From Thermoanaerobaculia bacterium (GTDB lineage: Bacteria; Acidobacteriota; Thermoanaerobaculia; Multivoradales; UBA5704), in the NCBI GenBank assembly GCA_035644215.1, contig DASQPA010000202.1, positions 4,162-68,161 of the forward strand: a stretch of DNA of 64,000 nucleotides, given 5' to 3'. Shown here piece after piece: positions 27,685-56,935 of the stretch. The first letter of the stretch is position 1; the number at the start of each line of letters is the position of its first letter. The notes beneath the pieces were generated by a model. The model was not told the DNA's origin and ran no database searches. It worked only from the letters and a program-made list of their open reading frames with translations. Position numbers and translations under genes: made by a program.

Positions 27685-28191
27685 TCAAGCCTCCGGCTCT
27701 GCCGGAGGTCTGTAACGGGTCAGTCCGATCTCGGCGGACAACTCGGCGCTGACCAACACGCGGATGCCGTGGCGCAGCAGGGATGTGAAATGGCGGCGGT
27801 TCTCGGTGGTGACGAGCTGCGCACCAGCCTGCCGCGCGATCTCGGCAATGTGTGCATCGTAGATCCTACCGCCCATCGTGCCCTCCCCTACGGTGGAGAT
27901 CAGGAACTCCTCCCGCAGTTTCGATGGGAGGTCGTGGACCGAGAAACGAGGGAAGATCTCCTCCCGCAGGAGCCGTAGGGCGATCTCCGGTTCGAGGCGG
28001 TATTCTTCCGGTAGGCGCGTCGTCACCGAGTAGAACTCGAGACAGCAATGCCAAGCGGTTAGCGGGCGCTCGATCTGGCCGTTCGCGACCGCATCCATCA
28101 GCAGTAGGGCGTGCTGCGAGCTGCGGCCAAAGTCGATGCTTCCGGCGATGAGGATACTGGTATCGAAGAAGGCCCCCCTCAGCCCGGCCAC
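27685..28191 (-). CDS. vapC: PIN-domain ribonuclease toxin (VapC-like) with an extended C terminus
   Basis: GAFFDTSILIAG (first acidic PIN residue), ...IYDAHIAEIARQAGAQLVTTENRRHF (distal PIN motifs). It overlaps the upstream AbrB-type gene by 13 nt. Confidence 0.78.
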   Translation of the reverse strand: MAGLRGAFFDTSILIAGSIDFGRSSQHALLLMDAVANGQIERPLTAWHCCLEFYSVTTRLPEEYRLEPEIALRLLREEIFPRFSVHDLPSKLREEFLISTVGEGTMGGRIYDAHIAEIARQAGAQLVTTENRRHFTSLLRHGIRVLVSAELSAEIGLTRYRPPAEPEA

Positions 28192-28463
28192 CGGTCCCGC
28201 TCCTCTTCCATCAACCGCGCCACGTCGACCTCGGCGCGCTCTCCTTCCGGCACCCGAGGGCGGACGACCAGCCGCTCGCCGCGCCGGACGAGCTCGGGGC
28301 CGGCGACCGACCGGACCAGGTGGATGGCGAAGCCCTCGACCACCATCTCAAGCTCCGTGCCGGCGGCCAGACCGAGCCGCTTGCGCACCTCGGCAGGAAT
28401 GACCACACGCCCGGCCTTGTCAATGGTCATGATCATGGGTGTAGCGTACCATGCCTTTGCCAC
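28179..28463 (-). CDS. vapB: AbrB/SpoVT-family antitoxin (VapB-like)
   Basis: MTIDKAGRVVIPAEVRKRLGLAAGTELEM is the swapped-hairpin AbrB motif. The start is ambiguous: GTG at 28463, or ATG at 28434 or 28428. Confidence 0.78.
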   Translation of the reverse strand: MAKAWYATPMIMTIDKAGRVVIPAEVRKRLGLAAGTELEMVVEGFAIHLVRSVAGPELVRRGERLVVRPRVPEGERAEVDVARLMEEERDRWPG

Positions 28464-33075: not shown

Positions 33076-33954
33076 CTAGGAGCGGCTGTCGATATAGTTC
33101 TGCGCGATCTGAGCAAGCTCCGCGGCGCGCTGTGGGTCTCTCCTATAGAGATCGTGAAAACATCGGGCGCAACTGGCGTGCTCGCTGGCGGAAGACAAGA
33201 GGCTTACGACGGCCCGATCCGCCAGGTCCCCCAAAGGGGAGTCCGCTCTTTCCTTCCATAGGAGAGCCAGATAAAGAGACCGGATGGTCTCGGCCCGCCC
33301 GCAAAGGAGATCCCCTCTCTCGTCAAGCGCGAAGAAATCGATCGTGACGATCGCACGCCGCATGGGATGGCCCTCCCGGATCTTCGGCACGGGGTTGATG
33401 CCGTTGAAGGTGAGGATCTCCTCCGGGTCTTCGTCCAGCTCTCCCAAGGGATACAGAAGGAACGGTCGCTCGGCGCGCAGCTCCACCGGATCGAGGCTCC
33501 CTGGGAGGCGTTCGGCGGCGATGGGAAAGAAGCTGCCCTTGAGCGAGGTATTGCAAGTCTTGCAGGCAATGGCATAGTTGAAGAGCTGATAGGCGAGGAG
33601 ATAGTAGCCGGCCGGCAGGTCGCTCCCGGTCGCGAAGTCGTAGTGGAGGCCCCGTTCGCGCTCGATCCTCCGCGCCGGCCATACTCTGACCGTGCTCTTC
33701 GGACGGTAGTGCTCCACGTCGTGCTCGACGGAGCCAAATCGCTGGCCGGATAGCCTGCGCTCGCAGTAGGCGCACTTCTCCCGCTGGAGATCCATGAACA
33801 CCCGCTTCACCTCACCCCAGGTGCTCTCGTCCTCCTCGTACCTGCCCAGCTCTCGGAACCGCTCGGTTCTCCGGGCAGCCTCCTCCAGCCAGCCGGGCAC
33901 CGCAGCCTGGACCCGCTTCTCCAGCTCTTGCAAGGAGATAGGGTAACGGATCAC
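33076..33954 (-). CDS. ptuB: HNH endonuclease, TIGR02646/PtuB-like (Septu nuclease component)
   Basis: REKCAYCERRLSG....VEHDVEHYRPKS ... YAIACKTCNTSLKGSFFP has the Cys4 plus His-Asn-His layout of the PtuB family. The GTG at 33954 lies 10 nt after the ptuA stop; the longer ORF-track start overlaps ptuA. Confidence 0.78.
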   Translation of the reverse strand: MIRYPISLQELEKRVQAAVPGWLEEAARRTERFRELGRYEEDESTWGEVKRVFMDLQREKCAYCERRLSGQRFGSVEHDVEHYRPKSTVRVWPARRIERERGLHYDFATGSDLPAGYYLLAYQLFNYAIACKTCNTSLKGSFFPIAAERLPGSLDPVELRAERPFLLYPLGELDEDPEEILTFNGINPVPKIREGHPMRRAIVTIDFFALDERGDLLCGRAETIRSLYLALLWKERADSPLGDLADRAVVSLLSSASEHASCARCFHDLYRRDPQRAAELAQIAQNYIDSRS

Positions 33955-33964
33955 AGGTCTTGGA

Positions 33965-35212
33965 TCACCGGCCCGGGACTTCGGAGCCTTTGGCGAGTGT
34001 CTCCAGGAAAGAGCGGGCCGCTTCCGGATCTCCCTCCATCGCCCGTTTCGACAGCTGGCGCAGGTAATCCACGGCATCCGGAGCACGGCTCGACCTTAGA
34101 TTGAAGTAGGAGCTCAATAGTATCTGATCGGCATCGAGCCCGTGGATGTTCTCCTCCAACTGCTGTACCGTCGATGCCCCGGAGTCGTCCATTTCCAAGA
34201 CGAAAATGTTCTTCGCGCTCAAGGTGCCGGCGACGATCGGGCTATGGGTCGAGAGGACGAACTGGAGGTTGGGGAGCGTCTGTGAAATCGTGGGAACCAC
34301 TCGTCGTTGCCACTCCGGATGGAGGTGAAGGTCGACCTCGTCAACTAAGACGACCCCCTTGAGGTCTCGTAGCTTTGTACCGGCAGGGCAGCCGAGAGTC
34401 ATGTTATAGAGGAGGTCGGTAATCCAACCCAGGTAGGCACGGTAGCCATCGGAAAGTGCTCCGAAGGGCACCGTGATACCGCAATGCTCGAATAGATACT
34501 CCTCCTTCTCTAAATCTCCTATGAACCTTGTCCCCTCCGGCAACATGTCATTGACGATCCCCTGAATCTCTTGAAAGCGCTCGCCGTAGGCGAAGCGGGG
34601 TAGCCAGGCGGCTAGGGGAACGAGCGGGATGTGCTCCTCAAAAATCCCCGCTACCCGTTGATACCGGAGACGCCTTCTCTTGCGCTGCGTCGGAAGTGGC
34701 TCTGAACCGCTGGCATCGGTCGACCAACGAGTTGCTCCATAGCCCAGCAATAAAAAGGCTGGAGATTCCTCGTCATACATCTCATCCTTCCAACTACTGA
34801 GCCAGGACTCTTCGTAAAGCTCTCTCAGTACCTCCTCATCTCTGACCTTGCCAATTCGGACTCCAGAAGAGCCAGATCGGGAGGGTGAATCGATGCCATT
34901 GCCAAAGTGGCCTTGATCCTGACCATGCATCAACAGACCAGCATCGACGGAGGCCATTTCCATCTGTACGCCGCCGGTTTCTCTCCGGGTCAATTGGTAG
35001 GGTACGTACCCTGAGCCTTCCAGGAATCTGGAGAGGACCGCCAGCGCGATCGCCTTGAAGACGGTGGTCTTGCCGGACCCGTTGTCCCCGAGGAGGAGAT
35101 TGACGTTCGACAGGGCCGGCGGCGACTCCTGCTCCCGCCCCGGGAACTGGAGCTCCAGCTCGGCTTCCCGGAAGCACCGGAGGTTCGCTATGCGCAGAGA
35201 TCGGACGTACAC
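33965..35212 (-). CDS. ptuA: ABC/SMC-like AAA_15/AAA_21 ATPase, PtuA-like (Septu ATPase component)
   Basis: MYVRSLRIANLRCFREAEL..., Walker A LLGDNGSGKTTVFKAIA, Walker B/D-loop VVLVDEVDLHLHPEWQ and H-loop FVLSTHSP. GC is about 56% in 34381-34500 (67/120, hand count). Confidence 0.78.
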   Translation of the reverse strand: MYVRSLRIANLRCFREAELELQFPGREQESPPALSNVNLLLGDNGSGKTTVFKAIALAVLSRFLEGSGYVPYQLTRRETGGVQMEMASVDAGLLMHGQDQGHFGNGIDSPSRSGSSGVRIGKVRDEEVLRELYEESWLSSWKDEMYDEESPAFLLLGYGATRWSTDASGSEPLPTQRKRRRLRYQRVAGIFEEHIPLVPLAAWLPRFAYGERFQEIQGIVNDMLPEGTRFIGDLEKEEYLFEHCGITVPFGALSDGYRAYLGWITDLLYNMTLGCPAGTKLRDLKGVVLVDEVDLHLHPEWQRRVVPTISQTLPNLQFVLSTHSPIVAGTLSAKNIFVLEMDDSGASTVQQLEENIHGLDADQILLSSYFNLRSSRAPDAVDYLRQLSKRAMEGDPEAARSFLETLAKGSEVPGR

Positions 35213-39489: not shown

Positions 39490-41045
39490 CCACCCGGCTC
39501 CTCTACCACATGGCCCGCGCCGACTTCCTGGAGCGGGCGCGGCGCTACAGCTTCCTGGTCACGGTCGCCGGGGCCGTCTTTCTCGGCTACATGATCAACG
39601 CCGGGAACGTCAACCTGTCGTTCCAGGACCAGCGCGGCATCCTCAACTCGGCCTGGGTGGGGACGCTCATCGGGCTCACCGCCGCCATGATGCTGCCGCT
39701 CTTCGGCTTCTACCTGGTGAAGAACACGCTGGAACGCGACCGGGAGACCCGGGTGGGCGAGATCCTCGCCGCGACCCCGCTCGGCAAGGCCGCCTACACC
39801 TGCGGCAAGACCTTGAGCAACTTCCTCTTCCTCGGCGTGATCCTGGCGATCCTCACCGCCGCCGGCCTGCTCCTCCAGATGCTCTCGGGGGAGGACCGCC
39901 ACGTCCACCTCGCGGCGTTCCTCCAGCCGATTCTCTGGATCGCCCTGCCGCCGATCGCGGTGGTGGCGGCGCTCGCCGTCCTCTTCGAATCGATCCGCTG
40001 GCTCCGCGGCTCGCTCGGCAACGTCCTCTTCTACTTCCTGTGGACCGGCTTGCTCACCGCGGCCCTCCTCTCGCCCGCCCTCGATTCACTCGGCTGGCAC
40101 CTGGTGCAGGACAGCCTGCTCCAGAAGGTGCCGTCGCTCCAGACGGTTGCCGCCGGCAAGGTGGAGCAGGCCTCCTTCAGCATCGGTCCCCACCAGGAGA
40201 TCCACAAGACGTTCCATTGGGACGGCATCGACTGGACCGCCGCGATCGTGGCCCAGCGGCTCGCGGTGGCCGCCGCAGCGGTGGCGGTGGCTCTGCTGGC
40301 CGCTTTCTTCTTCGGCCGGTTCGATCCGGCCAAGGAGGGAGGCCGGCTGCCCAGGGCGGCGTCAGAGGCGGAAGGGGAGGCCGGAGCCGAGGCCCGCCGA
40401 CCGCGGAAGCGCCGGATCGCGCTGCCCTCCGGGTCGCCGGCGAATCCCTTCCTCGCCCTGGTGGTGGCCGAGCTGCGCCTGATGCTTCAGGGGCGGAACT
40501 TCTGGTGGTACGTGGTGGCCGCCGGCCTCTTGGTGGCCGGGACCGTCTCCCCGCTCATCGCGATCCGCGTCGGCATCCTCCCCGCCGCCTGGCTCTGGCC
40601 GATCGGCCTCTGGTCCGGGATGGGAACACGGGAGAAGCGCTTCGGAACCGAGGAGCTGGTCTTCTCCGGCCCGCGCCCGGCGGCCTACGGCGGGGCGGCG
40701 ATCTGGACCGCCGGGGTGCTGGTGGCGGCGGGTACGACCTTAGGCGCCGGCCTACGGTTGCTCGCAAGCGGCGATGGACGATCGTTCCTGGCCTGGGTGG
40801 CCGGGTGTCTGTTCATCCCCGGGCTGGCCTTCGCGCTGGGGACGGTCTCGGGGACCAGCCGGCTCTTCGAGGTGATCTACCTGATGCTCTGGTACATCGG
40901 CCCGATGAACCACGTGCCGGCCTTCGACTACATGGGAGTGACGCCGCAGGCGCTGGCGCAGGGGATGCCGTGGGTGTATCTGGGGCTGACGGCGGGATTG
41001 GTGGTGGCGGGGCTTGCGGCGCGGGGGCGGTGGGGGCGGGTGTAA
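39486..41045 (+). CDS. polytopic ABC-2-type permease-like membrane protein
   Basis: Its ATG overlaps the ATPase stop (ATGA). It has many hydrophobic segments. Its 3' portion carries the left copy of the 60-bp duplication. Confidence 0.7.
   Translation: MTTRLLYHMARADFLERARRYSFLVTVAGAVFLGYMINAGNVNLSFQDQRGILNSAWVGTLIGLTAAMMLPLFGFYLVKNTLERDRETRVGEILAATPLGKAAYTCGKTLSNFLFLGVILAILTAAGLLLQMLSGEDRHVHLAAFLQPILWIALPPIAVVAALAVLFESIRWLRGSLGNVLFYFLWTGLLTAALLSPALDSLGWHLVQDSLLQKVPSLQTVAAGKVEQASFSIGPHQEIHKTFHWDGIDWTAAIVAQRLAVAAAAVAVALLAAFFFGRFDPAKEGGRLPRAASEAEGEAGAEARRPRKRRIALPSGSPANPFLALVVAELRLMLQGRNFWWYVVAAGLLVAGTVSPLIAIRVGILPAAWLWPIGLWSGMGTREKRFGTEELVFSGPRPAAYGGAAIWTAGVLVAAGTTLGAGLRLLASGDGRSFLAWVAGCLFIPGLAFALGTVSGTSRLFEVIYLMLWYIGPMNHVPAFDYMGVTPQALAQGMPWVYLGLTAGLVVAGLAARGRWGRV
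40821..40880. repeat. left copy of a 60-bp direct repeat (inside the permease gene)
   Basis: GGGCTGGCCTTCGCGCTGGGGACGGTCTCGGGGACCAGCCGGCTCTTCGAGGTGATCTAC matches 41854-41913 at 58 of 60 positions. Confidence 0.9.
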
Positions 41046-41126
41046 GGGGGGCTATCGCTGACGCGGCGCCGAGGTAGTACAGCCGCCGTGGGTGTATTTG
41101 CGGCTCAGCGACTCCGCAGGCTCCTC

Positions 41127-41432
41127 TTACCTGCGCAGATCGGCACCCTTGCGACGCGGCCGGAGATCCAGGGTCAGTTGCCATCCAATGGCTTGGGCAT
41201 AGCGCTCGAGCGTCGAGAGCCGGATGCTCCCGGCACTGTGTTCGATTCGGCTGATCGCCGATTTCTTCGTCTCCAGCCGCTGGGCGACCTGCTCCTGCGT
41301 CAGGCCGGCCTTTTCTCGGGCCTGCCGAAGCAGGGCACCGACCTTGAAATCCTCATAGCCCGCCTCCAGGTTGTCCGCAAACTCAGGATCGCGTGCCGCC
41401 CGCGCCCTCGCGTACTTAGTTAGATCGCTCAT
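41127..41432 (-). CDS. higA: XRE-family HTH antitoxin (HigA-like)
   Basis: LRQAREKAGLTQEQVAQRLETKKSAISRIE is the Cro/C1 HTH. It overlaps the upstream toxin gene by 17 nt. Confidence 0.85.
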   Translation of the reverse strand: MSDLTKYARARAARDPEFADNLEAGYEDFKVGALLRQAREKAGLTQEQVAQRLETKKSAISRIEHSAGSIRLSTLERYAQAIGWQLTLDLRPRRKGADLRR

Positions 41433-41781
41433 GGTCTTGCCTCCTGCTCAGGTAGTCCTGCCGCCGCTTCTCGGCCAGCGTAATCTCCTGGTGCGGCGTC
41501 TTCTCGGTCTTCTTTGCGAAGCCGCTGGTGAGCACGAGCAGCCGGGCACCGTCGAAGAAGCCGATCAACCGGAAGGTGTCTCCACCGTGCTGCGCCCGTA
41601 CCTCCCATAGGTCCCTTGTGCCGACCAGCTTCTTGAGATACTGCGAGGGTACCGTCTCTAACTCTTCCACCAAGCGCAGAACCCAGACCACCTTCTGGGC
41701 CTGCTTGCCACTGAGCGCATCAAGGAACTCTCCAACGGGACAGTGGCCCGCCTGGGTCCGGTAGAAGCGGACTTCGCGCAC
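41416..41781 (-). CDS. higB: RelE/ParE-superfamily toxin, phage Gp49-like (HigB-like)
   Basis: VRFYRTQAGHCPVGEFLDALSGKQAQKV...LKKLVGTRDLWEVRAQHGGDTFRLIGFFDGARLLVLTSGFAKKTEKTP follows the DUF891/Gp49 pattern. The toxin-first order is typical of HigBA. Confidence 0.85.
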   Translation of the reverse strand: MREVRFYRTQAGHCPVGEFLDALSGKQAQKVVWVLRLVEELETVPSQYLKKLVGTRDLWEVRAQHGGDTFRLIGFFDGARLLVLTSGFAKKTEKTPHQEITLAEKRRQDYLSRRQDHERSN

Positions 41782-41853
41782 TCGTCGAGGTTAACACAAA
41801 CGTGAACCTGACGCTAGGTGTGCCTGCGGGCTTCTGCGCCGCATTCACCTTCA

Positions 41854-41913
41854 GGGCTGGCCTTTGCGCTGGGGACGGTCTCCGGGACCAGCCGGCTCTT
41901 CGAGGTGATCTAC
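41854..41913. repeat. right copy of the 60-bp direct repeat (intergenic, upstream of higB)
   Basis: It is identical to 40821-40880 except for two substitutions. Homology stops abruptly on both sides. Confidence 0.9.
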
Positions 41914-42000
41914 GAGGATCTCCGCCCGCTGATTCCCGCGATTCATAGTGCTCTCACGGTCGTTTCTCCCGGGCAGGTGCTGCGACTGGGGACGTGAGCT

Positions 42001-42357
42001 TACGCTGGACCATTGTCTCGGGAGACGGGCCGTATCTGCTTACGCTGGACCATTGTCCCGGGAGACGAGCCGTATCTGCTTATGCTGGCCCATTGTCTCG
42101 GGAGACGAGCCGTATCTGCTTATGCTGGACCATTGTCCCGGGAGACGGGCCGTATCTGCTTACGCTGGACCATTGTCTCGGGAGACGGGCCGTATCTGCT
42201 TATGCTGGACCATTGTCTCGGGAGACGGGCCGTATCTGCTTACGCTGGACCATTGTCTCGGGAGACGGGCCGTATCTGCTTACGCTGGACCATTGTCTCG
42301 GGAGATGGGCCGTATCTGCTTACGCTGGACCATTGTCCCGGGAGATGGGACGTATCG
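42001..42357. repeat. tandem array, 40-bp unit x about 9, each unit with a GTCTC-GG-GAGAC palindrome
   Basis: TACGCTGGACCATTGTCTCGGGAGACGGGCCGTATCTGCT repeats head-to-tail from 42001, with units starting every 40 nt up to 42321. There are no spacers. The only variants are transitions at about 5 positions, and the last unit decays. Confidence 0.92.
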
Positions 42358-42385
42358 CAGACGATCGGTGTTGAACAGCCCACTC

Positions 42386-44977
42386 TCACTCGACATGGCA
42401 CTTTTCGACGACGTCATTGATGAGAGTCACCCATTCCCCCTCCCACCCGACCCACTCCCGAACGATCGACTCTTTTTCCGTCGCCAAGGCATCAGGCCCT
42501 AGACGGCCTCCGATCCTGGCGATCGAGTCGAAGCACAAACTGATAATCCCGTCCACCGGCGGCACATAGGTTTCGAGTGCGAGGTGAGCAGCGGCCGCGC
42601 TCGCCGGTACAAGGTTCTCGAGCTTCTTCAGCACGGCCGGCCAGAACTCTCGATGGACGAACCCCAGGGCTCGCAGGCTGCCCAGCCAACACCGCACGGC
42701 GTCTGGCAATACACCACGGTCTTCCTGGACTCGGCCCAACGCATACAACGAGTAACACGCTCCGCTCAGGTCGTGCTTGCGCAGGTAGAGTGTCACAACC
42801 CACTGGAACTGCTTCGCGGCTTTGTCGAGCTCCCCCTTACGATGAAGGACGTTCCCGATGCGCCTCGCTGCGCGCGGCATGCCGACCGGGTCGAGGTCGG
42901 CATCCGCACGCTCCAAGCTCCGGCCATATAGATCGGCGGCCTCTTCGAACTTACCCTCCTCGAAAGCCAGATCGCCAAGCGAACGGAGGCAGCGCGCGAT
43001 GCCGATCGCATCCGCGAGCGTTTCCGCGGCAGACAAGCTCTCTTGGTACAGCTCGCGTGCGGCTTCGCGCCGGTTCTGGCGCACCTCGATATGAGCGAGG
43101 CGGCGCAATGCCATGATTCCGCGCTTGGGATCATCTATCTCTTTGCAGAGCTCTATGCAGTGCACGAGATGGCTTCTGGCCGCTTCCAGCTTGCCGCGGA
43201 TGATCTCGATGTTACCGAGCTCCAACAGGAATCTACACTCGTCTTTTCTGCTATTCGCCTTGACTGCCGCAGCCAGCCCCTTCTCGCAAACGTACTTCGC
43301 CTGCGCAAGATAGCCACTGAGCCGGTTGGGCGGAACCAGCGAGAACCGATCCTGGCGAAGCACGAAGTGCCGGACCTGCATGGTGATGTCGACGAGATCC
43401 TTCCAGTCCTCCATGGTCGCGAGAAGATCCATGGCGCCAAAGATGTTCTTTTGCTCTCGGTCCAGTGCTCCATAGTTGTCCCAGGCTCTGCCGCCGTGCT
43501 GGCGCGTGATGCCCAAAAAGTGTATTACGAACTGTCGGCGCATCTCGTTTTGCAAGGACGGATTTTCCTGCAGCTTGGATTCGGCGAATTTCTTGGTGAG
43601 GGGATGGAGTTGATATCCTCGCATGGTGTCGGCCGTCTCCTCCGAGGCTTCGACGAGGATCATCTCTACGAGGGCTTCGATAGCCGCCTCGAGGCGCTCT
43701 TCTGTCAGCCCGGTGGTGGCGAGGAGAGAATCCCAACGGGCCGGGGCAGCGAAGATCGCGAGGCCACAGAGGACCAATCGGGCATCGTCACTCATCTCAT
43801 CCCAAAGATCTTCATAGAAGCTGAACGTCTCACCCTTGGCTCTGTCGAGAGCGTCCAGGATGCGGTCCAGCGACAAGCCTTTTTTGAACCGCGCCATCGC
43901 GAGCTTCATGAACAGCGGGTTGCCGCCGGTACGTTCCCAAATGATCCGTAACTTCGGCCTCTTCTTCTGGCCCGGATAATACCTGCTCCACTCGCTACGC
44001 AGCAGCCGCAGCGCATCCCCCTCCCTCATCTGGCCGACGGCAACGTGCGTCGCTTCAAGTTTCTCGAGCCGGCGACTCGCGATCAGCGCCTTGCTCGGCG
44101 GTGGCAAATCGCTCAGAAACGAGCTGATGGAAGAGCGGTCGCGTTCGATGGTATTGAAGTTGTCGATGATCACGAGGGTCTTCCACGTCTTCAGCAGGCG
44201 GTGAGTGAGCTGGACCTGATCGTACTCCTCCAGGTTGGCATTGTCTTGAAGAGTCCGCAAGATCGAAACCATCACATCCTGAAGGCTAAGGTCGGAATCC
44301 TTCGCAGTGTTGAACACCGCGGCATCGAAGATCCCGTCCTCGACCGCGACGTAGGCCGCCTGGATCGCGAGGCTCGTCTTCCCAATCCCGGCGATCCCTT
44401 CGATGGCCGTCAGCCAGGAACGGGGATGCTTGAAGCTCGCGATCACGGAGTCCAACTCCTGAGCTCGGCCGATGAAATCGGGCCGGTGTGGCAGGTGGAG
44501 GCGTGGCAAACGATCAGGAGCGGGTTCGGAGCCTGGATGCATCGCAGCGGGAGAATCCAGGCGCTTGAGCAACAACCGGATAAGGTGATCCTCGAGCTGC
44601 CTGGCGAACGCATGTATGCCGGCTTGACTCCTGTCGTTATACTTCAAATAGACGCGTGAGCCCAGCTCGCCAGGAATGGCTTGCTCATCCAGCGGTTCGA
44701 TGACGACCGGAACGATGTAGCCCTGTCCGCGATGCTTTTCCTTTTCGAGCGCCCACTGCAGCTCGGCCTTGACCCACGGTGACTTGACCGAGTCTCGACT
44801 GAGAAAGATGACCAGGCACGAGGTCCCATCGTCGATGGCCGCCTTGATACCTTGGCTCAAGGGTTCACCGGCAATCAATTCGTGCTCGTCCACCCAGGTC
44901 TCGAGATGGCTGAAATGCTGCCGCAGGGCATGGATCAAGGGCTTGTCTTGATTGCCGTGAGAGAAGAAAATCTTCAC
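42386..44977 (-). CDS. TIR domain / P-loop STAND (NB-ARC-like) NTPase / TPR-repeat protein
   Basis: VKIFFSHGNQDKPLIHALRQHF...CLVIFLSRDSVKSPWVKAELQWAL is TIR-like. Walker A is GIAGIGKTSLAIQAAY and Walker B is WKTLVIIDNFN. About 400 aa of TPR-like helices follow. The GTG at 44977 lies 8 nt after AGGAGG; the rest of the 1253-aa ORF is shadow. GC is about 53% in 43141-43260 (64/120, hand count). Confidence 0.85.
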   Translation of the reverse strand: MKIFFSHGNQDKPLIHALRQHFSHLETWVDEHELIAGEPLSQGIKAAIDDGTSCLVIFLSRDSVKSPWVKAELQWALEKEKHRGQGYIVPVVIEPLDEQAIPGELGSRVYLKYNDRSQAGIHAFARQLEDHLIRLLLKRLDSPAAMHPGSEPAPDRLPRLHLPHRPDFIGRAQELDSVIASFKHPRSWLTAIEGIAGIGKTSLAIQAAYVAVEDGIFDAAVFNTAKDSDLSLQDVMVSILRTLQDNANLEEYDQVQLTHRLLKTWKTLVIIDNFNTIERDRSSISSFLSDLPPPSKALIASRRLEKLEATHVAVGQMREGDALRLLRSEWSRYYPGQKKRPKLRIIWERTGGNPLFMKLAMARFKKGLSLDRILDALDRAKGETFSFYEDLWDEMSDDARLVLCGLAIFAAPARWDSLLATTGLTEERLEAAIEALVEMILVEASEETADTMRGYQLHPLTKKFAESKLQENPSLQNEMRRQFVIHFLGITRQHGGRAWDNYGALDREQKNIFGAMDLLATMEDWKDLVDITMQVRHFVLRQDRFSLVPPNRLSGYLAQAKYVCEKGLAAAVKANSRKDECRFLLELGNIEIIRGKLEAARSHLVHCIELCKEIDDPKRGIMALRRLAHIEVRQNRREAARELYQESLSAAETLADAIGIARCLRSLGDLAFEEGKFEEAADLYGRSLERADADLDPVGMPRAARRIGNVLHRKGELDKAAKQFQWVVTLYLRKHDLSGACYSLYALGRVQEDRGVLPDAVRCWLGSLRALGFVHREFWPAVLKKLENLVPASAAAAHLALETYVPPVDGIISLCFDSIARIGGRLGPDALATEKESIVREWVGWEGEWVTLINDVVEKCHVE

Positions 44978-45057
44978 TCCCTTCACCTCCTGGGGTCGAG
45001 ACGGCGGACGAGACGCTTGCCGCGACGAGCGGCCAAGCCGGCACTCGGAGGGGACGG

Positions 45058-47283
45058 CTAGTTCCGCGCTTCCGCGATGTCCCCGCCGTTCATCCGGCGG
45101 TCCACCCGGAGCACCCCGGTGAGGGAGCGGACGTTGCGCATCAGGCGCTCCAGGTGCTTCCTGTCGCGCAGGCCGCAGACGACGCTGATCGTGGCGTGGC
45201 CGGTCTCCCGGGTGATCGCCTCGATGTGGCTGATGTTGCTGTCGAGCTTGGCGATCACCTCGGTCAGGCGGGCGAGCATCCCCTGGGTGTTCTCCGTCTC
45301 GACGAGGAGCGAGACCTGGTAGACGTCGTTCTTCTGCTTCGCCCACTCGACCTCGACCTCGCGCTCCGGGTTGTAGAGCAGGTTCTTGACGTTCGGGCAG
45401 TCGATCGAGTGGACCGACACCCCCCGGCCCCGGGTGATGTAGCCCACGATGTCCTCGCCGGGCAGCGGGTTGCAGCACTTGGCGAGGTAGGAGAGGAGGT
45501 CGCCGTGCCCCTTGACCGCGATCGGCCCCTCCTTGAAGGGGAGAATCTTCGACACCGCCTGGCGCAGCCGGCCGGGCGGCGACGCCTCCTGGAGCTTTTC
45601 CTCCCCCAGGGCACGGGCCAGCACGTTCTTGACCTCGATCTTGCCGAAGCCGATCCGCGACAGGAGGTCCTCGCTCTTGGCGATCCCCTCCGCCGCCAGG
45701 TACTCCACCATCCCCGGGCTCTCCAGCACCTTCCGGGGGCTCAGGTTGTAGCGCCTTACCTCCTTCTCGTAGAGCCGCCGCCCGATCTCCATCGCCCGCT
45801 GCTTCTGCTGGGTGTTCAGCCACTGGCGGATCTTCGACTTGGCGCGCGGCGTCTTGACGTAGGTCAGCCAGTCGCGGCTCGGGTTCCGGGTGGGGCTCAC
45901 CAGCACCTCGACCATGTCGCCGTTCGAGAGCGCCGTGCGCAGGGGCACCAGCTTGCCGTTGACCCGCGCCCCGGCGCAGTGGTGGCCGAGGTCGGTGTGG
46001 ACCTTGTAGGCGTAGTCGAGCGGCGTCGCCCCGCGCGGGAAGGAGAAGACCTCCCCCTTGGGAGTGAAGACGTAGACCTCGTCCGGATAGAGGTCCATCT
46101 TGAGCGTGGTGAGGAAAGTGCGCGGGTCCTGCACTTCCTTCTGCCACTCCAGGAGCTGGCGCAGCCAGAGGATGTTGGGATCGGTGGGGCGCGGCTCGAC
46201 CTTCCCCTCCTTGTAGCGCCAGTGGGCGGCGATCCCCTCCTCGGCGATCAAGTCCATCTCGCGGGTGCGGATCTGCACCTCGAAGGGTTGCCCCTTCTCC
46301 CCCACCACCGTCGTGTGCAACGACTGGTAGAGGTTGGGCTTGGGCATCGCGATGTAGTCCTTGAAATGCCCGGGAATCGGCCGCCAGCTCTGGTGGACGA
46401 CGCCCAGGGACGCGTAGGTGTCCCGGATGCTCCCGGTGACGATGCGGAAGGCCAGGTAGTCGTAGAGCTGCGAGATGTCGATCCCCTGCCGGCGCAGCTT
46501 CTCATAGATCGAGAAATAGCGCTTCACCCGGAAACTGATCTCGGCTTCGATCCCCGCCGATTCGAGGCTCTTGACCATGCGGTCGTGGATACGCTCCATC
46601 GCCTCCTGGCCGAGCTTCATCTTCTCCGCCACCTTCGAGTGCAGCTCGGCGAACTGGTGCGGGTAGAGGTGGTAGAAGGCGAGGTCTTCGAGGTCGCCCT
46701 TCACCCGCGCCATCCCCAGGCGGTGGGCGATCGGCGAGTAGATCTCCAGGGTCTCGCGCGAGATGCGGCGCCGCGAGTCGACCGGCAGGTGCTCCAGAGT
46801 CTGCATGTTGTGCATGCGGTCGGCGAGCTTGACGACGATCACCCGGATGTCCTTCGCCGAGGCGAGGATCATCTTGCGGAAGGTCTCGGCCTGCACCTCG
46901 TCGCGCCGCACGTACTCGTGGCGGCCGATCTTGGTCACCCCGTCGACCAGCTCGGTGATCTCGGGGCCGAAGGTCGACTCCAGCACCTCCCGCGTCGTCA
47001 GGGTGTCCTCCAGCACGTCGTGGAGGAGGCCGACGGCGACGCAGGTCTGGTCGAAGTTCAGCTCGGCCAGGATGAAGGCGACGTGCAGGGGGTGGATGAG
47101 GAACGGCTCCCCCGAGCGGCGCACCTGGTCCTGGTGCATGCGGGCCGAGAAGTCGTAGATCGCGGAGAGAAAGTCGCGGTCGACCTTGCGGCCATGCGCC
47201 GCCAGGCAGGCGAGGAGGTCCTCGAAGCGCAGGGTGGACCGCGCCGGAACCGGTGGTGTGAGGTTCTGTCTCAACCCTGGCAT
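45058..47283 (-). CDS. spoT: bifunctional (p)ppGpp synthetase/hydrolase, RelA/SpoT family
   Basis: HD domain (GEPFLIHPLHVA...LLHDVLEDT), synthetase domain (YQSLHTTV...FEVQIRT), TGS (VFTPKGEV...GATPLDYAY) and a C-terminal ACT-like region. The start is taken at MPGLRQN (47283); alternatives lie upstream. Confidence 0.92.
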   Translation of the reverse strand: MPGLRQNLTPPVPARSTLRFEDLLACLAAHGRKVDRDFLSAIYDFSARMHQDQVRRSGEPFLIHPLHVAFILAELNFDQTCVAVGLLHDVLEDTLTTREVLESTFGPEITELVDGVTKIGRHEYVRRDEVQAETFRKMILASAKDIRVIVVKLADRMHNMQTLEHLPVDSRRRISRETLEIYSPIAHRLGMARVKGDLEDLAFYHLYPHQFAELHSKVAEKMKLGQEAMERIHDRMVKSLESAGIEAEISFRVKRYFSIYEKLRRQGIDISQLYDYLAFRIVTGSIRDTYASLGVVHQSWRPIPGHFKDYIAMPKPNLYQSLHTTVVGEKGQPFEVQIRTREMDLIAEEGIAAHWRYKEGKVEPRPTDPNILWLRQLLEWQKEVQDPRTFLTTLKMDLYPDEVYVFTPKGEVFSFPRGATPLDYAYKVHTDLGHHCAGARVNGKLVPLRTALSNGDMVEVLVSPTRNPSRDWLTYVKTPRAKSKIRQWLNTQQKQRAMEIGRRLYEKEVRRYNLSPRKVLESPGMVEYLAAEGIAKSEDLLSRIGFGKIEVKNVLARALGEEKLQEASPPGRLRQAVSKILPFKEGPIAVKGHGDLLSYLAKCCNPLPGEDIVGYITRGRGVSVHSIDCPNVKNLLYNPEREVEVEWAKQKNDVYQVSLLVETENTQGMLARLTEVIAKLDSNISHIEAITRETGHATISVVCGLRDRKHLERLMRNVRSLTGVLRVDRRMNGGDIAEARN

Positions 47284-47422
47284 GGAGGACAAGCCCGACG
47301 GAACGGGCGACAGGCTCGTTGAAGTGAACAAGTATACGGGAGGGTTCGTTCCCATGGCAAAGACGGCGACGCCCGGCACCAGGCCGGGCGTCGACGGGAG
47401 CTGCGGGAGCGGGCGGACCGGA

Positions 47423-56432: not shown

Positions 56433-56684
56433 ATGGACTCGATCACCTACACCTCAGCCCGCGCCAATCTGGCAAAGACCATGGACCATGTCTGCGAGAG
56501 CCACGAGCCGGTCCTCATCACTCGCAGCGGCCAGACGCCGGTGGTGATGCTCTCGGTCGAGGACTACAACTCTCTCGAAGAGACCGCCTACCTCCTGCGC
56601 AGCCCCAAAAACGCAAAGCGCTTGATCGAGGCGATCGCCGACCTCGAGCAGGGTCGAGGCACGGAACGAGAACTCGCTGAGTGA
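56433..56684 (+). CDS. yefM: Phd/YefM-family antitoxin
   Basis: ITYTSARANLAKTMDHVCESHEPVLITRSGQTPVVMLSVEDYNSLEETAYLLRSPKNAKRL is a near-canonical YefM. Confidence 0.92.
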   Translation: MDSITYTSARANLAKTMDHVCESHEPVLITRSGQTPVVMLSVEDYNSLEETAYLLRSPKNAKRLIEAIADLEQGRGTERELAE

Positions 56685-56935
56685 GGCTGATCTTCGCCGA
56701 GCAGGCCTGGGAGGACTACCTCTACTGGCAGAGGACCGACCGCAAGATATTGGCCAGGATCAACCAGCTCATCCGAGACATCCAGCGGGAGCCCTTCGGC
56801 GGCATCGGCAAACCGGAGCCGCTGAAGCATACCTTCCCGGGCTACTGGTCACGCCGAATCGACAGCGAGCATAGAATCATCTACAAGATTCACGACGGCT
56901 CCGTGCTCCTCGCTCAACTTCGCTATCACTATTAG
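56681..56935 (+). CDS. yoeB: YoeB/Txe-family toxin (ribosome-dependent mRNA interferase)
   Basis: AWEDYLYWQ..D.K....NQLI.DIQR.PF.GIGKPEPLKH...GYWSRRID.EHR..Y is a near-canonical YoeB. It overlaps yefM by 4 nt. Confidence 0.92.
   Translation: MRLIFAEQAWEDYLYWQRTDRKILARINQLIRDIQREPFGGIGKPEPLKHTFPGYWSRRIDSEHRIIYKIHDGSVLLAQLRYHY

Follow-up and report, generated by a model that had tools for sequence, protein, structure and literature searches.

A TIR-NB-ARC-TPR gene of NLR-like architecture in a foreign insertion behind relA/spoT of a Thermoanaerobaculia soil bacterium

Gene, domains and predicted fold

The window analysed here is a stretch of 64,000 nt of contig DASQPA010000202.1 (positions 4,162 to 68,161; GenBank assembly GCA_035644215.1) that derives from a soil metagenome and whose relA gene, with best relatives 90% identical, places the host in the Thermoanaerobaculia (Acidobacteriota). 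Behind relA, on the minus strand, lies a complete gene (42386..44977) encoding a TIR domain, an NB-ARC nucleotide-binding domain and a TPR sensor, in that order. Its 863 codons plus stop form an uninterrupted open reading frame (ORF), without any internal stop in the 863-aa translation, and it aligns along its whole length with homologues of 849-877 aa. The ORF listing of the window gives a longer, 1253-aa ORF (42386..46147) in the same frame because that frame stays open through relA; from the sequence we place the true start at the GTG at 44977, which is preceded at a distance of 8 nt by a Shine-Dalgarno sequence, AGGAGG (44986..44991, read directly off the sequence), and at which the homologues also start. 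An earlier, sequence-only reading of this locus had described a TIR / NB-ARC-like P-loop / TPR protein, and the four peptides it quoted, VKIFFSHG, SPWVKAELQWAL, GIAGIGKTSLA and LVIIDNFN, are all present in the 863-aa translation.

Profile hidden Markov models, two structure models and fold searches agree on this order of domains. The TIR domain (residues 1-140, 44558..44977) is delimited by Pfam TIR_2, which matches residues 3-117 (E 1.1e-17; 65.1 bits, cut-off 28), and by a TIR-only model with its fold matches; the Pfam TIR family is likewise above its cut-off (27.8 bits, cut-off 21.3). The nucleotide-binding domain (NBD; residues 166-300, 44078..44482) is recognised by Pfam NB-ARC, whose match spans residues 189-359 at 26.3 bits (cut-off 23.5) and reaches 46-54 bits in members of the family, whereas NACHT falls below threshold (19.3 bits, cut-off 26.7). 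TPR_12 (E 1.8e-18) and TPR_MalT (48.6 bits, cut-off 45) mark an alpha-helical TPR sensor (residues 471-790, 42608..43567), which the model renders as paired helices with a predicted local distance difference test score (pLDDT) >90. At the level of sequence profiles, these Pfam matches far exceed chance.

The motif order of a STAND NTPase (Walker A, Walker B Asp, GLPL-like, MHD-like) is kept throughout. Walker A, GIAGIGKTS (residues 194-202, 44372..44398), has G194, G197, G199, K200 and T201 near-invariant among 32 homologues, and Walker B, LVIIDNFN (residues 268-275, 44153..44176), has a near-invariant D272 within a clade motif hhhhDNxE; the second acid position of Walker B is Asn in this protein, as it is in most of its bacterial relatives. 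The ARC part (helical and winged-helix domains, HD and WHD; residues 301-470, 43568..44077) was delimited from motif columns and the secondary structure of the model, and the motif columns of the family alignment place in it a GLPL-like GGNP motif (GGNPL; 43916..43927) and an MHD-like LHP motif (43601..43609). Beyond the sensor, the protein ends in a conserved helical cap (residues 791-863, 42389..42607) that carries an LETYVP...LC motif with invariant L801, E802, Y804, V805, P806, D809, L814 and C815, and to which no Pfam family matched.

A full-length AlphaFold model, built from the 32 homologues, has a mean pLDDT of 85.5 and a predicted template modelling score (pTM) of 0.73. Its best Foldseek match in the PDB is PH0952 (6mfv), an archaeal STAND-TPR protein (E 5.5e-14, 739 aligned columns), followed by the plant receptor RPP1 as second-best and then by Apaf-1, CED-4, ZAR1 and NRC resistosomes; entries 6mfv, 7dfv, 1z6t, 4m9s and 8bv0 (E 5.5e-14 to 5.6e-7) support an NBD-HD-WHD fold, and the nucleotide-binding domain itself resembles those of Apaf-1, CED-4, RPP1 and NRC proteins. 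PH0952 is thus the closest fold to the NB-ARC plus TPR body, although it has no TIR effector and is 14% identical. This ranking indicates that the NTPase is of the AP-ATPase/NB-ARC type and not a NACHT. We also considered membership in the bNACHT group and rejected it, given the NACHT score below and NB-ARC score above the Pfam cut-offs and the Apaf-1-like fold. Taken from sequence and model, the protein combines receptor and effector in one NLR-like, self-contained unit and belongs to the AP-ATPase (NB-ARC) branch of the STAND NTPases.

The separate TIR-only model (pLDDT 81) matches AbTir (7uxu) best, together with SPARTA TIR-APAZ, Cat1, plant TIRs including RUN1, and SARM1 (TM 0.5-0.66 overall, and about 0.6-0.66 for AbTir, SPARTA TIR-APAZ, Cat1 and the plant TIRs). 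HMMER pairs Glu72 (codon 44762..44764) with the glutamates in the motifs WTNYEL of AbTir and WCWDEL of Cat1; by our own residue count the former would be E208, which we take to be the catalytic residue of AbTir. Glu72 is one of five invariant columns in five TIR heads found on this chassis, heads that are otherwise 14-26% identical. The earlier assignment of a Glu to the catalytic position of TIR NADases is therefore borne out by sequence, profile and fold class, a level of alignment short of residue-level superposition.

The insertion between relA/spoT and the ABC transporter

The gene lies within a foreign segment of 4.0 kb (41049..45063), delimited by breaks in homology and by low GC. One genome (L008) is syntenic on both flanks: its homology to the window breaks off at 45064, short of the relA stop by a few bases, and picks up again where the ABC permease ends, at 41048. 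In place of the 4.0 kb it has 603 bp (L008 12098..12700) with a MazF/PemK toxin-antitoxin pair on the strand opposite relA (toxin Pfam E 1e-12, small ORF upstream), which suggests, on sequence comparison, that the relA-ABC permease slot is a minor hotspot at which toxin-antitoxin or defence genes insert. GC within the 4-kb segment is 0.56-0.65, compared with 0.66-0.74 outside, and GC at third codon positions (GC3) is 0.74 in the TIR gene versus 0.94-0.97 in native neighbours. The cargo comprises the TIR-STAND gene, a 40-bp sequence repeated nine times, and a Gp49/HTH toxin-antitoxin pair.

Upstream of the segment, the relA/spoT gene (45058..47379, minus strand; start probably near 47160-47250) encodes a bifunctional Rel-type enzyme with Pfam HD_4, RelA_SpoT, TGS and ACT domains. 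Synteny of secDF with relA is the rule in 80 related relA loci of Thermoanaerobaculia/Acidobacteriota, none of which (0/80) has a TIR-STAND homologue at relA. A survey of the sequence downstream of relA in 20 relatives found variable content, with ribosomal protein L28 in distant relatives and small ORFs lacking Pfam matches, and was uninformative beyond L008. Elsewhere, a 60%-identical homologue in another Thermoanaerobaculia metagenome-assembled genome (L001) is flanked by a TPP enzyme on one side and a hypothetical gene on the other. It too forms an island of low GC (0.51-0.59 versus 0.65-0.71), with a 564-nt intergenic region of its own upstream; a 49%-identical homologue is found on contigs of GC ~0.40. 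Across three contexts (the window, L001 and L003) no neighbouring gene is shared, and neither a 239-aa ORF at L001 nor small ORFs after the L003 homologue match Pfam. Because the gene stands out in composition from its surroundings in both the window and L001, and because the three contexts have no common neighbour, we read it from these sequences as a mobile cassette of one gene, acquired horizontally and lodged in the variable slot that separates relA/spoT from the ABC transporter.

The two genes share a strand and are separated by exactly 80 nt (44978..45057), from which the sequence-only reading had raised the possibility that expression of the TIR gene is tied to spoT transcription. The local geometry holds up: a scan of the gap that covered sigma-70 consensus promoters and U-tract terminators only predicted neither, and shuffled sequence folds as well as the junction does (z = 0.26). 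With no such site in the gap and a promoter-like site upstream of relA (47331..47360, 10/12 match), read-through into the TIR gene is physically plausible, and passive read-through from relA is possible on this sequence evidence. The proposed tie itself finds little to sustain it. If the gene were a stringent-response-coupled receptor, co-transcribed with relA/spoT, its level following spoT transcription and the coupling functional, then the short gap, common strand, missing terminator- or promoter-like sites and upstream promoter would all be as expected; yet the adjacency recurs in 0/80 related relA loci, the gene is inside a foreign insertion whose edge directly follows the relA stop, homologues reside elsewhere with upstream regions of their own that share no sequence with the gap, and a strong ribosome-binding site precedes the gene, which may, the scan covering sigma-70 only, have its own promoter as well. 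We consider such a receptor improbable. Membership of a relA/spoT operon by conserved linkage was rejected on the same 0/80 count. Since the adjacency is unique, the insertion foreign and a homologue elsewhere, any link of its expression to spoT transcription would be a chance outcome of the insertion, and a functional tie of the gene to the stringent response is unlikely.

Comparison of upstream regions gave little further guidance. The 80-nt gap, which is part of the inserted DNA, has no homology to L008 or to the upstream regions of homologues, and no meaningful alignment was obtained among those of the window, L001, L003 and L004, so that no conserved upstream element was found among them. 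Sequencing runs that contain the locus are of soil DNA only; the one metatranscriptome match is to the 40-bp repeat alone. A more speculative variant, to which we give still less credence than to co-transcription as such, is that the gene is expressed mainly by read-through from the relA promoter, so that its abundance tracks stringent-response expression, and that the TPR sensor might read a conserved host-state cue in place of a phage protein, a thought that stems from the sensor being unusually conserved (49-74% identity within the family) relative to the head (21-27%). If that were true, an accidental but selectable coupling would join (p)ppGpp metabolism to an NAD+-depleting immune switch.

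The 40-bp tandem repeat (41997..42356, minus strand; Tandem Repeats Finder score 634, 95% matches) lies 30 nt after the TIR-STAND stop codon and is part of the inserted segment; nine copies were matched where 0 are expected. Words from the repeat reach a depth of 260-700 or more in the source soil run, compared with 10-11 in both flanks, and that run's own assembly breaks at the repeat, with loose ends running into other flanks; the array is therefore either much longer than 9 units or its unit is present at other loci. The metatranscriptome match is a single 70-nt contig of pure repeat from soil. As an RNA, a CRISPR array or a terminator the repeat was rejected (no spacers, no Rfam match, fold z -1.4), and no copy of it is present in 87 fetched loci, in IMG/VR or next to the homologues.

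At the far end of the insertion lies the Gp49 (HigB-like) toxin with its HTH (HigA-like) antitoxin (41127..41781, minus strand; Pfam Gp49 E 2.4e-19, HTH_31 and HTH_3; 17-nt overlap), a pair with relatives ~92% identical in another soil run. A search for direct or inverted repeats flanking the island ends found only one match, of 19/21, with both copies at the same edge: the 82-nt island edge (41045..41126) holds a copy (41085..41105) of the ABC permease 3' end (40967..40987). Contigs of two other soil runs have 15 nt in place of these 82 nt (41045..41126).

Other genes of defence or conflict type are found in the window. A complete Septu system (33076..35212, minus strand; PtuA 33965..35212, PADLOC E 4e-146; PtuB 33076..34086, E 1e-92) lies 7 kb from the TIR gene in a low-GC patch of its own and is foreign in composition (GC3 0.69/0.78). 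The window has two more toxin-antitoxin pairs, one of them YefM/YoeB (56433..56935, plus strand; E 1e-25 and 8e-39), the other a PIN toxin paired with a MazE-like antitoxin (27685..28463, minus strand). Our best inference from the sequence is that this setting, with Septu 7 kb away and toxin-antitoxin pairs nearby, favours a defence role for the gene.

Relatives and known systems

Close relatives are few. Only five turned up when 5.8 billion proteins were searched with a word index. When HMMER was run exhaustively over 1.84 billion representatives, the matches at >=45% identity made up about five clusters; beyond them the scores break sharply (E 1e-202, then 1e-62), and what follows are NB-ARC-TPR proteins ~30% identical, with 226 representatives at E <1e-30. 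Near-identical fragments of the gene are present in two other soil metagenomes, and a scan of metagenome contigs for family loci returned one 1-kb fragment. No homologues were found in IMG/VR or in the phage collection, and a plasmid search returned only relatives at 21-25% identity.

Conservation within this small family is uneven. Identity is 52-70% in the NBD and 45-74% in the TPR region, compared with only 21-27% in the TIR head, and N-terminal heads on the homologous chassis include TIR, EAD5, EAD7 and CHAT, with EAD7, CHAT or TIR in more distant relatives. Homologues P0005 (TIR) and P0006 (EAD5, PF19957), both from contigs <3 kb, are 64% identical over the NB-ARC-TPR chassis; because such similar chassis carry different heads, they point to a recent exchange of TIR and EAD5. 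AP-ATPase conflict systems have been described as following the same logic of an effector/adaptor slot (PMC7159879).

These heads bear on whether the protein acts against phage at all. NB-ARC-TPR switches have been proposed to serve regulated death in kin or colony conflict, or stress signalling, in multicellular bacteria, and a TIR could also be an interaction module only. Bacterial NB-ARC-TPR relatives of the protein do include AfsR/SARP regulators (NCBIfam and PDB 8k60 matches), no link to phage was observed directly, and the phage and IMG/VR collections gave no homologue. Against such a role, the protein has no DNA-binding domain, its enzyme-type TIR keeps the Glu at the catalytic position, its relatives bear death-type effectors or adaptors (CHAT, EAD5, EAD7), and a low-GC mobile cassette with toxin-antitoxin pairs next to it and Septu close by is in keeping with defence genes. 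We accordingly hold a non-antiviral function to be unlikely.

The architecture is not new. Bacterial TIR-AP-ATPase(NB-ARC)-TPR proteins of the STAND superfamily were reportedly already recognised by Koonin and Aravind in 2002 and by Leipe and colleagues in 2004. Such proteins and EAD adaptors have since been described as conflict systems, the architecture having long been known in bacteria (Kaur et al. 2020, PMC7159879). The window protein has the same order of TIR, NB-ARC and TPR and the same swappable N-terminal effectors or adaptors. Those descriptions are computational, are centred on actinobacteria and cyanobacteria, and often concern multi-gene vWA-MoxR systems, whereas the window gene stands alone, comes from an acidobacterium, and belongs to a tiny separate cluster (>=45% identity) whose next relatives are ~30% identical. 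On sequence, then, the protein is a rare addition to the proteins of the known TIR-NB-ARC-TPR plan, and not a new kind of system.

Avs (AVAST) proteins (Avs1-5; Avs7-21 in PMC13581612) share the general plan, in which an effector at the N terminus (a TIR in some of them) is joined to a STAND NTPase and a TPR-like sensor, and are single-protein pattern-recognition receptors activated by ligand-induced oligomerisation, a behaviour that the window protein may share by analogy. The window protein differs in having an NTPase of the NB-ARC type by Pfam and fold, and a sensor of ~390 aa, shorter than most characterised Avs sensors. Assignment to Avs1-5 as modelled in PADLOC was rejected for want of a model match, and relatives P0002 and P0006 likewise match no PADLOC Avs model. 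The TIR-II proteins of E. coli, in which a TIR is joined to TPR and, in about 30% of members, to an ATPase domain, are single-protein phage defences abolished by mutation of the conserved TIR active site (PMC11350192); the likeness of the window protein to them lies in the TIR plus TPR (±ATPase) plan, compared by description only. A solved 824-aa 'Tetratricopeptide repeat protein' (PDB 9m0n / 9umd) is similar in length to the window protein, and the family profile aligns over positions 2-264, the TIR plus P-loop region of the query, with residues 3-269 of the 9m0n chain (E 2.4e-7); the relationship is distant, as the single sequence matches in the TIR domain only (E 0.12). A literature search on PDB 9m0n and on the term 'TIR-STAND' found no paper.

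Resemblance to plant TIR-NLRs such as RPP1 and Roq1 extends to TIR plus NB-ARC, the catalytic-position Glu, the P-loop, and GLPL-like and MHD-like motifs, with the family profile covering TIR plus NB-ARC of Roq1 over 370 positions (E 1e-11). The sensor is TPR here, in contrast to leucine-rich repeats plus C-JID there; identity is ~14-23%, and Walker B reads DN instead of DD. We know of no EDS1-type downstream pathway in bacteria.

How the TIR domain would act is best approached through its closest matches, which are NAD-depleting effector TIRs, namely those of TIR-SAVED (E 9e-13), Cat1 (E 3e-8) and pAgo-TIR (E 1e-6). One alternative is a signal-generating TIR whose nucleotide messenger (a cyclic ADP-ribose isomer or an ADP-ribose conjugate) switches on a separate effector, on the model of Thoeris or plant TIR-NLR/EDS1. 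In its favour, the TIR that the domain matches best in structure, AbTir, makes cyclic ADP-ribose isomers, and the profile matches plant TIR-NLRs with the same order of TIR plus NB-ARC. On the other side, no SLOG, Macro, SIR2 or caspase-like gene adjoins the gene in the three contexts, which have no neighbour in common, and ThsB models match weakly (E 0.03-0.06; Pfam ThsB_TIR 20.0 against a cut-off of 21.2). The same scores, with no adjoining effector gene in the window, L001 or L003, led us to reject the gene as a Thoeris component, and we regard messenger synthesis more broadly as unlikely. Depletion of NAD+ is preferred because no partner gene is common to the three contexts, because the TIR is closer to effector TIRs (TIR-SAVED, Cat1, pAgo-TIR) than to ThsB, and because TIRs inside Avs or as standalone proteins are regarded as likely NAD+ depleters (bioRxiv 10.64898/2025.12.03.692087).

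Proposed mechanism and meaning

The reading that we favour as probable is an NLR-like, one-gene anti-phage switch that was acquired horizontally and whose position behind relA is incidental. The cassette would have landed between relA/spoT and the ABC transporter of a Thermoanaerobaculia soil bacterium, where relA read-through transcription may reach it and would form no part of its working. In a resting state, the TPR sensor and an ADP-bound NB-ARC would keep the protein monomeric. A ligand derived from the invader, most likely a phage protein, would bind the TPR solenoid and bring about nucleotide exchange and oligomerisation. The clustered N-terminal TIR domains would then form NADase sites using Glu72, NAD+ would be destroyed, and the infected cell would halt before phage maturation (abortive infection). 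The analysis establishes the architecture, motifs, fold and foreign origin of the gene and its lack of conserved linkage to relA; ligand, oligomerisation, NADase activity and defence role are what we infer. STAND clades, 198 of them, have been classed as defence-associated by effector domain, and STAND sensors for core phage proteins have been broadly mapped (PMC13581612).

This reading must be tempered by several observations that weigh against it. The neighbours of the gene are mostly housekeeping, the L001 homologue is not within a recognisable defence island, and the close-family clusters (about five) are all metagenomic. No Avs model of PADLOC-DB 2.0 matched the protein at E up to 1, the only matches being at the domain level (TIR, TPR and a weak PDC-S27), and the alignment of Glu72 reaches the level of sequence, profile and fold class and not that of residue-level superposition. 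Two residues near the nucleotide pocket also depart from the family: N275 (codon 44153..44155) stands where four close relatives carry Asp or Glu (DNF[DE]), and T300A (codon 44078..44080) alters an hhhTSR motif with Thr in all relatives. Together these two may mean that ATP is handled differently.

The same two changes, with a codon usage foreign to the host, are what would be expected if the gene were a decaying passenger, a recently acquired cassette no longer functional in this host. That is very hard to reconcile with an intact ORF of 863 codons behind a strong ribosome-binding site, with near-identical fragments in two other soil metagenomes, and with private changes at otherwise invariant columns that number only 9, as low as in relatives (7-40). 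Decay is therefore not seen, pseudogene-like drift is rejected on the private-substitution count, and we give loss of function only the faintest chance.

If it is active, the protein would be a compact one-gene TIR-NB-ARC-TPR receptor from the Acidobacteriota, a phylum in which, to our knowledge, almost no immune systems have been characterised. As its TIR-NB-ARC core is common to plant TIR-NLRs, it would add a case from which to trace NLR immunity to its bacterial roots, and the replacement of TIR by EAD5 on one chassis offers a clean natural experiment on the exchange of effector heads. Its value lies in an addition to the catalogue of the family and in a candidate for trigger screens, with current concepts unchanged.

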